A program made the position numbers and the translations under genes. The notes beneath the pieces are model-generated. The model was not told the origin of the DNA. It worked only from the letters and a program-made list of their open reading frames with translations, and did no database searches. 64,000 nucleotides of DNA from Plasmodiophora brassicae (Eukaryota): NCBI GenBank assembly GCA_036867785.1, contig CP145412.1:372001-436000 (forward strand). Direction: 5' to 3'. Below are positions 14,160 through 19,500 of this stretch, piece by piece (the stretch's first letter is position 1; every line of letters begins with the position of its first letter).

Positions 14160-14365
14160 TGTGCTAACGCCGCCGCTGCCCACTACGGGGGCGGTCGGTC
14201 GCAAGAGTCGGCGCCTGGTGATATAACGAACTGATGTATTTGGACAGGATCGTCACAGCAAGGGCCGCTGCGGGGTCGAGTACGGTCATGATCATGTGAC
14301 CGGGTGGCAGCAGCATCTGAGCAGCATCATCTGAGTACTGGTACTCTGGATGAACACTCCCCGTG

Positions 14366-17300
14366 TTAGAAATCTGCTAACAGTCGTGAGCAGAGCGGGT
14401 CTCCTTCGGCTTGTCGTTCGAGGAAGGCCCTGACGATATCAGGAACATCGGCCGCCATGACCGAGTAAGGTTCCCATGAATTGTCGGTGGCATCGAATCC
14501 GATCCAGTTGATCAGTAGTTCAGTGTCACCTGACGTAGAGTTGACTCGAATGTCCTCGACTGCGTTGACTTGGTAAGCCACGCCGGTGAGCGCGATGTTG
14601 TGCTTCAGGGAAGAGGTGACATTCAAGTGCGCATCTGCATAGAACATTAAGCGCTGGGCGTGTACATCTGAGATACGATCAGTCAAGAGATCTCGAACTC
14701 GATACACCCAGTCGTTGATGGTGTCGATAATCTGGGCAGGTCCAGTCCAGTTGTACTCGGACTTGGAGTGCTTGCCATGGTTGGCCACGAGAACATAGTC
14801 GCCCGTCGTGAAGTTGATCTCGCGAACATTGCGTCGGCGACGCCGGGCGCGTTGCTTGAGATCACGTAGATGGGTGCGTGTACGTGCCACTGCTTTGTGC
14901 ATGTCCTCGAGAGAATCGATAAGTTCCGTCGTCATTTCCTTGAGACGGTCAGGGGTCAACGGTACGTCGATAACCGCGTCGATGCGTTTGTTGAAGATAA
15001 TCGAGATAGGTGTCGAGGGTGGCAAACCCGTAAACATCGTGACAGGCGCGTAGCCCACACTTGATCGAACAGTGTGATTTACCGTCATGTTGATCAGCGG
15101 AAGGACATACGGCCAATCCTGGAATGGAAGATTTAGCTCGGAGAGGAGGGACTTCAGCAGAAAGAGAAGCCGCTTGTTGACAACCTCAACCGTGCCGTTC
15201 GCCCAAGGTGTGTAGGCAGTTGTGAAATGATGGTTGCAGTGTAACCGGCTATTAAGCTCGGCGATAACCGCGTTTTTGAAGTGTGTGCCGCGGTCAGAGA
15301 CATGTTGGAAAACAATGCCGAAACGTTTGAACCAATCCAGAAGAGATTCGGCGACAACGCTGTGATCCGCGAATTGACAAGGAATTAACTCGACGAATGC
15401 CGTGGCGTCGTCCTTCAGAACCAGAACATAACGAAGTTGATGAGAATCGCCTGGACGAGGTTTGGATAAGAACAGAAAGTCATAGTGGATGACCTTATTG
15501 GGCTTGTCCGCATGCATAGCCGTGCCAAAAGGTCGGGGAATCATCGAATCTTTGTTGCGTAGGCAGTGTAAGCATTTGTCCACAAATGCACGAACAAAGG
15601 AATCCAGATCAGGCCACCAGAAGAGTTGTGCGATGCTCGAAATAGTCGATGCAGCAGGTTGATGACCAGACAGTCCCATATGTGAAATCACTGCGATGCG
15701 TAGCTGCAGTGCATGTGATGGTACCCAGAGTTGATTGTCTGGAGTACGCCAGCCAGATTCCGGGCTAAGGTGGAGAGACATGTCCCCTTCGAGTTGGAGA
15801 ATATCGGAAACGGCAGATAGGTCGTGTTGGCGAATGTAGTCGGTCTGAGCGTTACTAATCTCGTCGACAGACGGCCAGATAAACTCATCGGTCATCTTGT
15901 AATCGTCGAAGTCAAGATTAATTGCCATATGACGAATAGAACGGAACGATGGAGGGGAAAATGAGGAGAGTGGTTGCAGGGCGACGCCCCACCGCGTGGC
16001 GAGGTCGGCCCAAACGTTGTCCTCCCCAGCAATGTGCTCAATGTGAAAATCTAGGTCGATAATCTGAAGTCGCCAGCGCTCCAAGCGATCGCCGGTCGTC
16101 CGACTAATTCGTGCAACCGAGGCTGGGTTCAGAATGAAAACCAAATTACGGTGGTCTGTGAAGATTCGAAGTGCCAGCTTTGACATAGAGATGAAGTGTC
16201 TGAGGCGATAGCAGCCTTCAATGATGGCGTAGGCCTCCTTCTCAATGGTCGCCCACTTCAATTGAGAACCACGGAATGTCCCCGAGATGAACGACAAAGG
16301 TTCGTGGTGTTGCTCACCGTACGGGAGATCAATATCTTCCGGAGGGATCTGCGACAGGAAAACAGACCAGAAACGGTCACTCGCATCCGGAAAGAGACAC
16401 ATGATCCATTCGTCCTTGGGGTGCGCCAGCGTCATGGCCTCCGATAGTCGATGCTTCAGAGAATTGAAACTGGTGAGATGGTCAGTGGTCCAGCCGATGT
16501 CGGCTAAACGAACTCGACGTAGGTGTGATTTCTTCAGACTGCTGACAGAACGAGAAGCGGACAGAAGTAGATCCTGTAGCGGATGAACATGTGCCGCGAA
16601 TTGAGGGATAACAGAACGGACCCAATTGAGGCCCGAGAGGAACTGTTGGAGATCAGCAGCCGTGATAGGAGTTGATAGATCGTGCAAGGCGTTGAGATAC
16701 GAGCGATCGAACGACACTCCATCAGCGGATATAACGCGACCGCACCATGTCACTGAAGTGAGATATAACTGGCAGCGATCAGGGTTGAGTTTAACTCCAA
16801 ACTCGTCGAAAGCGTTGAGAAGAGATTCGAGTGTGTCCATGTAGGCTCCGAATCCAGATACGTAGCCGAGGATATCGTCGATCCAGAGTAGGGCGCAGAT
16901 ATATAGAAGTTTCCCCAACACCTGTTGCATTCCCGCCTGGAACGCAAACACGCAATCAGCGATTCCCTGGATGATGCGCCTGGGTGTAAACGTGGCGATG
17001 TGCGTCATGAACGAGCAGGCCTCCTGCGAATCAGGGTGCAACGGAAATTGCCAATAGCCTTTAAAGGCATCGAACAGCATGAAGATGGTCGCGGAACGTA
17101 GGTAGGTCAGGATGATGTCGATGTGAGGCATCGGCCATGCAATGCGTTCGGTCTGTTTGTTGACGGCTTCATTGATGTCGACGGTCAGCCGATGGCCGCG
17201 AACCTCCGTGTCCTTCTTGTCGACGACCAGACACGGCGACGCGTACCTGCTGTGCGGATTGCGGTACACAAAATCGTTTTCCGCCAAGGTTCCTACGTGA

Positions 17301-19289: not shown

Positions 19290-19299
19290 AGAAGCTTCT
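19290..19299 (-). promoter_or_regulatory. Palindrome AGAAGCTTCT at the PBS position of G1
   Basis: Perfect 10-bp palindrome including the terminal LTR base; adjacent second palindrome TTGCGCAA at 19283-19290. Confidence 0.8.
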
Positions 19300-19500
19300 G
19301 TGCTAACGCCGCCGCTGCCCACTACGGGGGCGGTCGGTCGCAAGAGTCGGCGCCTGGTGATATAACGAACTGATGTATTTGGACAGGATCGTCACAGCAA
19401 GGGCCGCTGCGGGGTCGAGTACGGTCATGATCATGTGACCGGGTGGCAGCAGCATCTGAGCAGCATCATCTGAGTACTGGTACTCTGGATGAACACTCTC

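Follow-up and report, generated by a model that had tools for sequence, protein, structure and literature searches.

What serves as primer-binding site in long terminal repeat (LTR) retrotransposons whose 5′ LTR runs directly into a perfect palindrome? The question is raised by a stretch of 64,000 nucleotides (nt) from the clubroot parasite Plasmodiophora brassicae (contig CP145412.1 of assembly GCA_036867785.1, positions 372,001-436,000 of the forward strand; hereafter the window), which is crowded with mobile elements: four Gypsy elements (G0 to G3), three Copia elements, one more Gypsy reverse transcriptase (RT) fragment and two DDE transposase genes. A first-pass annotation had proposed that the four Gypsy families replace the transfer RNA (tRNA) primer-binding site with a palindrome overlapping the LTR end, and the four sequences were recovered where it had placed them, namely AGAGATCTCT at 1395-1404 (G0), AGAAGCTTCT at 19290-19299 (G1), AAAACCGGTTTT at 36611-36622 (G2) and AGAAACGTTTCT at 52994-53005 (G3). 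The explanation favoured here, to which we assign a probability of roughly 0.45, is that the palindrome serves a large clade of chromodomain Gypsy elements as primer-binding site, that these elements have given up tRNA priming, and that the site would work through the pairing of two genomic RNAs.

The register of the palindrome is best defined in G1, a complete chromodomain Gypsy element of 5336 nt (14160-19495, minus strand) that is nested in a Copia element. Its 5′ LTR (19299-19495, 197 nt, TGTTC..GCACA) is 100% identical to its 3′ LTR (14160-14356); when the minus strand is read, the purine tract CGGGGAG (14357-14363) comes directly before the 3′ LTR. The element is flanked by a 5-bp target-site duplication, CTCTC on the plus strand and GAGAG on the element strand, at 19496-19500 and 14155-14159. 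The 5′ LTR ends on the first A of the candidate primer-binding site AGAAGCTTCT (minus strand). This boundary is further backed by contigs of four public sequencing runs aligned to 13900-19800. One contig in each of two runs joins 14153 to 19495 and thereby skips 5341 nt, that is, G1 plus one copy of the duplication; these contigs differ from the window by 5-7 letters and so represent a paralogous Copia copy that lacks G1. Contigs of three runs exit the G1 LTR at 19296-19299 into several different flanks, which confirms the LTR end and establishes that the G1 family is multi-copy. The single open reading frame (ORF) for gag-pol (14366-19255, minus strand) is uninterrupted over 1629 amino acids, and the encoded polyprotein matches a P. 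brassicae protein in NCBI at 100% identity. The element is thus as intact as had first been claimed and, with its identical LTRs, uninterrupted reading frame and several insertion sites, its arrangement is compatible with recent transposition.

The same register was observed in the two other elements with determined ends; LTR pairs, target-site duplications (for G1 and G3) and contigs that stem from further insertion sites served to fix the LTR ends of G1-G3. G2 (36429-42825, plus strand) has LTRs of 183 nt at 36429-36611 and 42643-42825 that are 100% identical (TGTAG..CTACA), and its palindrome on the plus strand starts on the last LTR A and is directly followed by a hairpin, TAGTGC..GCACTA. 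Its coding region is divided into ORFs at 36650-40054 and 40192-41691, the split lying between RNase H and integrase; a frame change (40054/40192) in an element with identical LTRs may stem from a mutation that disabled it recently, from misassembly or from frameshifting of an unusual kind. G3 (52844-58179, plus strand), with LTRs at 52844-52994 and 58036-58179 (TGTAC..GTACA) and a perfect target-site duplication, GATGT, at 52839-52843 and 58180-58184, is a degenerate element decayed into at least three ORF pieces; its palindrome, also on the plus strand, likewise begins on the last LTR A and is directly followed by a hairpin, TAGCG..CGCTA. In all three elements a perfect palindrome of 10-12 nt therefore begins at the final A of the 5′ LTR, as had been proposed. 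G0, a Gypsy-like 5′ part on the minus strand that is cut by the window start (1-1404), fits the same arrangement, with the end of its putative LTR (1404 to about 1546) at 1404 placed solely from the TG/CA termini and the position of a gag-like ORF that matched no Pfam family. With 81 perfect palindromes of 10 nt or longer in the whole window, about 1.3e-3 per position, the three to four that lie at one fixed register far exceed chance.

Pfam domains identify G1, G2 and G3 as chromodomain Gypsy elements. G1 encodes RVT_1, RT_RNaseH, Integrase_H2C2, rve and Chromo in this order, that is, the RT, RNase H, integrase and C-terminal chromodomain of a chromovirus, and G2 and G3 encode the same domains across their ORF pieces. 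The LTRs of the four families had been described as unrelated, which holds in so far as a repeat search of the window returned no LTR match between families; the elements themselves are not equally distant, G1 and G3 being related fairly closely, with 62% identity over RT-RNase H as against 36% between G1 and G2.

To what extent the trait reaches beyond this locus was established from relatives. G1 and 15 database relatives were aligned, and the ensuing search gave 80 metagenome loci (denoted L), while no relative was found in a viral contig collection. Long direct repeats were present in 14 of the 80 loci; half of them (seven) proved to be true LTR pairs, and the other seven reflect overlaps at contig ends or duplications inside the locus. 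Both LTR ends are present in L009, L021, L038 and L044, and all four carry a palindrome of 10-12 nt: the 12-nt palindromes AAAGAATTCTTT, AATAACGTTATT and ATTGAATTCAAT of L009, L021 and L038, respectively, start on the last LTR base, and L044 has a 10-nt palindrome at +1. For L051 and L043 the 3′ LTR copy is cut by the contig end and the LTR end was taken from the terminal inverted repeats; a 14-nt palindrome lies at -2 in L051, that is, two bases into the LTR, and a 10-nt palindrome at +1 in L043. The LTR end of L036 was not independently set. A palindrome of at least 10 nt is thus found at a register between -2 and +1 relative to the LTR end in 9/9 independently bounded elements (G1-G3 and six from metagenomes), against a background in the metagenome loci of 455 palindromes in 378 kb, about 1.2 per kb.

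Further junctions were collected by scanning all loci for palindromes that start on an A after C and lie upstream of gag. The boundary of seven of these loci (L004, L015, L016, L017, L018, L032 and L059) is backed by a purine tract followed by TG, 164-573 nt upstream, together with a matching terminal inverted repeat. After the near-duplicates L059 and L068 had been dropped, 28 junctions remained, with palindromes of 10, 12 or 14 nt. The register was 0 in 23 of the 28, -2 in L051 and L013, -1 in L001 and +1 in L043 and L044. The same trait is therefore present in a group of Gypsy elements from the clubroot parasite and many environmental microbes, and reaches well beyond the window.

A separate observation concerns the bases that follow the LTRs. 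The 5′ and 3′ LTRs of 7/7 pairs (G1, G2, G3, L009, L021, L038 and L044) are followed by the same one or two bases (GA, A, GA, A, AT, T and A), despite the duplications of G1 and G3, which place the LTR end at CA; this may reflect a target preference or chance.

What is conserved at these junctions is symmetry and register rather than sequence, in agreement with the first-pass annotation. The cores of the 28 motifs vary between GATC, AGCT, CCGG, ACGT, AATT, TTAA and TCGA. When the motifs were aligned without gaps as a 12-nt class (14 rows) and a 10-nt class (9 rows), both sides were found to vary at 5/6 and 4/5 of the pairs, respectively, and all cells (100%) were Watson-Crick paired, with not one G-U pair among the 129 pair cells counted, while sliding the partner by 1-3 columns reduced pairing to 31-59%. 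Compensated changes separate the sister pairs L015/L018 (GAATTC versus GTTAAC core), L021/L016, L008/L006 and G1/G3. On a quick RT tree, a fully supported branch divides a 46-row clade, which contains 23/23 of the scored palindrome rows, from a 13-row clade in which no junction was located. The other 23 rows of the 46-row clade are unscored, most being taken as contigs that lack the 5′ junction, and none is a shown exception. Loss of symmetry in most relatives, which would have spoken against the proposal, was accordingly not encountered.

If the palindrome marks the primer position, a partner should be identifiable, and several candidates were considered. No TGG, the triplet that pairs with a tRNA CCA end, occurs within 20 nt of the LTR end in G0-G3, as had been claimed, and none (0/28) of the junctions starts with TGG, so that these elements do not have the appearance of tRNA-primed elements; a TGGCGC in G3, 22 nt downstream of the LTR, is too distant to define the LTR end. 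The 64-kb window contains no tRNA gene. Fold-back of the Tf1 type, where the site pairs with the start of the element's own transcript, within the LTR, was rejected as a general explanation, since an LTR complement is absent in 10/11 elements: the longest Watson-Crick run between the LTR and an 18-nt stretch covering the site was 4-7 nt in 11/11 elements and never exceeded that of shuffled LTRs. A complement shortly downstream, as described for GalEa Copia elements, was rejected as a general feature as well, 20/23 elements being no better than shuffles; second copies were seen in L012 (9/10 at +10) and in L011 and L030 (both 8/10). In six complete elements, neither the surroundings of the purine tract nor the LTR or the coding region contained a second copy of the motif in a consistent position. 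The sole partner that this leaves to the palindrome is its counterpart on a second RNA, or the palindrome itself.

The hairpin noted above for G2 and G3 was evaluated as a possible clade-wide feature and rejected, as it was present in about 7-8 of 23 elements with z-scores mostly between -2.6 and +1. It directly follows the palindrome in a subset comprising G2, G3, L004, L006, L009, L015 and L016. In these elements the palindrome is followed by AG, and a hairpin of 4-10 bp starts from its last T or Ts, T(T)AG; for the G of the AG, the C in the terminal CA of the LTR is a further potential partner in most rows.

Since the position of the minus-strand primer sets the LTR end, a self-complementary element located exactly at that end is most simply read as the primer site itself. 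Under the proposed mechanism, the sites of two co-packaged RNAs would pair to form an RNA duplex of 10-14 bp that abuts U5, and one strand would be cleaved where the duplex ends on its 3′ side, probably by the RNase H that the element encodes, as in Tf1. The new 3′-OH would lie opposite the last LTR base and could be extended through U5 and R, yielding minus-strand strong-stop DNA, and the remaining short RNA would later be copied by the plus strand, thereby regenerating the site. The central bases of the motifs are always self-complementary, and predicted homodimer energies range from -4.4 to -20.5 kcal/mol, with a median of -10.8.

Several points weigh against this proposal. Pairing, cleavage and priming are all deduced from sequence, and contigs of the four runs over 13900-19800 show no strand-changing joint at the G1 palindrome. 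The duplexes of some families are weak, such as those of AATAATTATT (-4.4 kcal/mol) and ATATTAATAT (-5.0 kcal/mol). A cut 3′ of an RNA's own primer site removes the site from the coding part, and an uncut partner RNA or a template switch would thus be needed to keep the site in the minus strand. The perfect pairing of the alignments is partly a matter of ascertainment, as most rows were chosen as palindromes, and it is the diversity of the motifs and their distribution on the RT tree that are informative; similarly, 19/28 junctions were found by palindrome scanning and only the nine independently bounded elements are unbiased. The LTR ends of L003, L023, L033, L039, L045 and L078 could not be located, and counter-examples may exist among them. 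Finally, when G-U pairs were allowed in the comparison of sites with LTRs, one of the 11 elements tested, G2, stood out with a match of 10 bp to LTR positions 75-84. This match, CTAAGACCGG, had been singled out at the outset as worth testing; the run is real, yet borderline, as 6/200 shuffles reach it and it leaves the four bases adjoining U5 unpaired.

The G2 match also bears on the alternative that fares best, which we nevertheless consider unlikely, namely that the palindrome is a dimerisation or packaging signal at the LTR edge and that priming is carried out by a host RNA or, in some families, by fold-back of the Tf1 type. Palindromes in the 5′ leader are the classic dimer signal of retroviruses, where they are likewise short and able to pair two genomic RNAs, as outlined in the excerpted text of Donnart et al. 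(2017, PMC5445492), and the hairpin that directly follows the palindrome in the seven elements named above would be in keeping with such a role. According to the same text, however, retroviral sites are situated in hairpin loops and exist in addition to a separate tRNA primer-binding site, whereas the Gypsy palindrome is linear, abuts the LTR, has neither complementary flanking arms nor a loop context, and itself occupies the place of the primer-binding site. It holds the exact primer position that defines U5, nothing else within 20 nt resembles a primer-binding site, and the Tf1-type match that some families would require is lacking in all but one of the elements compared.

A second alternative retains a single RNA, in which a mini-hairpin or a downstream complement would fold back and, once cut, provide a snap-back primer. 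One argument for it comes from the fungal GalEa Copia elements, which according to the excerpted account (PMC5445492) lack a tRNA-type primer-binding site and carry a Conserved Hairpin Site after the 5′ LTR. The 9-bp conserved sequence of this site, of which two variants cover 85% of families, forms a 10-nt palindrome together with the A that closes the 5′ LTR, and its inverse complement, CHSeq2, lies 12-41 bp downstream; an LTR complement is absent, which excluded priming of the Tf1 type, and the mechanism is left unexplained in that account. The register is thus the same as in the Gypsy elements, and the downstream copies of L012, L011 and L030, together with the stems of L016 and L004, which by eye extend 3-4 bp further beyond a one-base bulge, could be read in the same way. 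That the majority of elements do not exceed shuffles in this respect argues against such a scheme, as does the finding that 18/22 isolated motifs do not fold, the best reaching -3.2 kcal/mol. Moreover, a hairpin does not need perfect complementarity of the central four bases, which would lie in its loop, and yet this complementarity is present in every family; pairing of two RNAs is favoured for this reason, and fold-back within one RNA appears improbable.

More improbable still is a role at the DNA level, be it as the site of a dimeric protein, in plus-strand transfer or in end processing, rather than as an RNA primer site. Strict Watson-Crick symmetry devoid of G-U pairs would be compatible with a constraint on the DNA, and all motifs resemble restriction-type sites; on the other hand, the cores differ so widely among families that no single protein site is conserved, and the element would remain without a primer site. 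Priming of each family by a tRNA of the host, a fragment of one or some other small RNA, with the symmetry incidental, is scarcely credible, because four different motifs in one host would call for four RNAs each ending in a palindrome, TGG is absent, and symmetry is maintained over 28 junctions of differing sequence. Independence from tRNA, as put forward in the first-pass annotation, is hence well supported by the logic of the sequences: the motifs differ within one host and symmetry alone is conserved.

The Copia elements of the window (2037-6725, minus strand; 11519-22062, plus strand, with G1 nested inside; 27174-32525, plus strand) provide an internal contrast. All three have the same non-palindromic sequence, GATTAACAGTCGTA, right after the 5′ LTR, again devoid of TGG, and one post-LTR sequence common to three Copia elements, as opposed to four different Gypsy motifs in the same host, indicates that the Gypsy motifs are not sites for host RNAs. 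The reverse complement of GATTAACAGTCGTA resembles a 5′ tRNA half that terminates in an anticodon loop of the Asn type, which may reflect half-tRNA priming as in copia. The Copia element at 11519-22062 sits in a tandem repeat, (GCCTTATGAC)n, visible on both of its flanks. Within G1, three contig joints that skip 53-59 nt with GT..AG borders on the plus strand (14339>14393, 14464>14524 and 14584>14642; runs X1 and X17) look like a spliced antisense transcript (14339-14642, plus strand) that leads from the G1 3′ LTR into the chromodomain region, each run contributing one contig with sides of 29-30 nt, which is thin support.

The remaining Gypsy RT-RNase H fragment (1554-3428, plus strand) belongs to a different clade, having 27% identity to G1 and grouping with the 13-row outgroup clade; it adjoins the G0 LTR, and the window does not include a junction for it. 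DNA transposons are represented by a DDE_Tnp_4 gene of the Harbinger/PIF-like type (33199-34410, minus strand) and a Tc1/mariner-like gene encoding DDE_3 and a helix-turn-helix (50337-52037, minus strand). ORFs encoding a PHD finger (59207-60250) and a Sad1/UNC domain (60400-61770) look like host genes. Two long perfect palindromes (7877-7902 and 8085-8104), 200 nt apart and with the common core TAGTACACTATAGTGTACTA, are located just upstream of a Copia pol fragment.

To our knowledge, priming of LTR retroelements in the absence of a tRNA has been solved only for Tf1, in which a duplex of 11 nt is cut by the element's RNase H. The elements described here resemble Tf1 in being chromodomain Gypsy elements that have no tRNA primer and would form a duplex of similar length from their own RNA beside U5, and differ from it in that the site appears to be its own partner. 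Self-priming is attributed to the Tf1/sushi-type chromoviruses, among them Tf1, Tf2, Maggy, Skippy and Cft-1, in the excerpted texts of PMC5006619, PMC6934838 and PMC6317226, the last of which also predicts it for the Tcn1 clade, one element of which has no recognisable site according to the portion of PMC2864245 that treats it. The dictyostelid chromovirus Skipper, as far as the excerpt of PMC5006619 describes it, has lost the TGG-type primer-binding site and has no LTR complement, and novel self-priming was proposed; its LTR is followed by a degenerate polypyrimidine stretch, and that of the P. brassicae Gypsy elements by a palindrome.

The closest parallel remains GalEa, with which the Gypsy elements share the register of the palindrome, the absence of a tRNA-type primer-binding site and, in most elements, the lack of an LTR complement. 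As far as the excerpted account of GalEa allows the comparison, the two differ in lineage, GalEa being a Copia of the Pezizomycotina while the present elements have the Gypsy domain order with RVT_1 rather than RVT_2 and reside in a plasmodiophorid and in metagenome hosts, and in the site itself, which is near-fixed in GalEa but varies freely over 10-14 nt in the Gypsy elements, the downstream complement being missing from most of the latter. Full-text searches of the openly accessible literature returned no description of a palindromic primer site in a Gypsy element. The idea is therefore not wholly new given GalEa, and the Gypsy case is without a precedent that we could find.

Since 2016-2017 neither the hairpin site of GalEa nor the pyrimidine stretch of Skipper is known to have been explained, and the clade described here supplies many natural symmetric variants that point to RNA-RNA pairing between two genomes; in vitro, these variants could serve as compensatory 'mutants' that nature already provides. 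Annotation tools that seek a tRNA-type primer-binding site may miss such protist elements or flag them as defective, and host silencing by tRNA fragments could not target them. As a tentative extension, which we hold with less than even confidence, an old and large protist clade may, by pairing the identical sites of its two packaged RNAs, have merged dimerisation and priming into one event, arrived at independently in the GalEa Copia elements, and this would constitute, next to tRNA priming and fold-back of the Tf1 type, a third general mode of priming.

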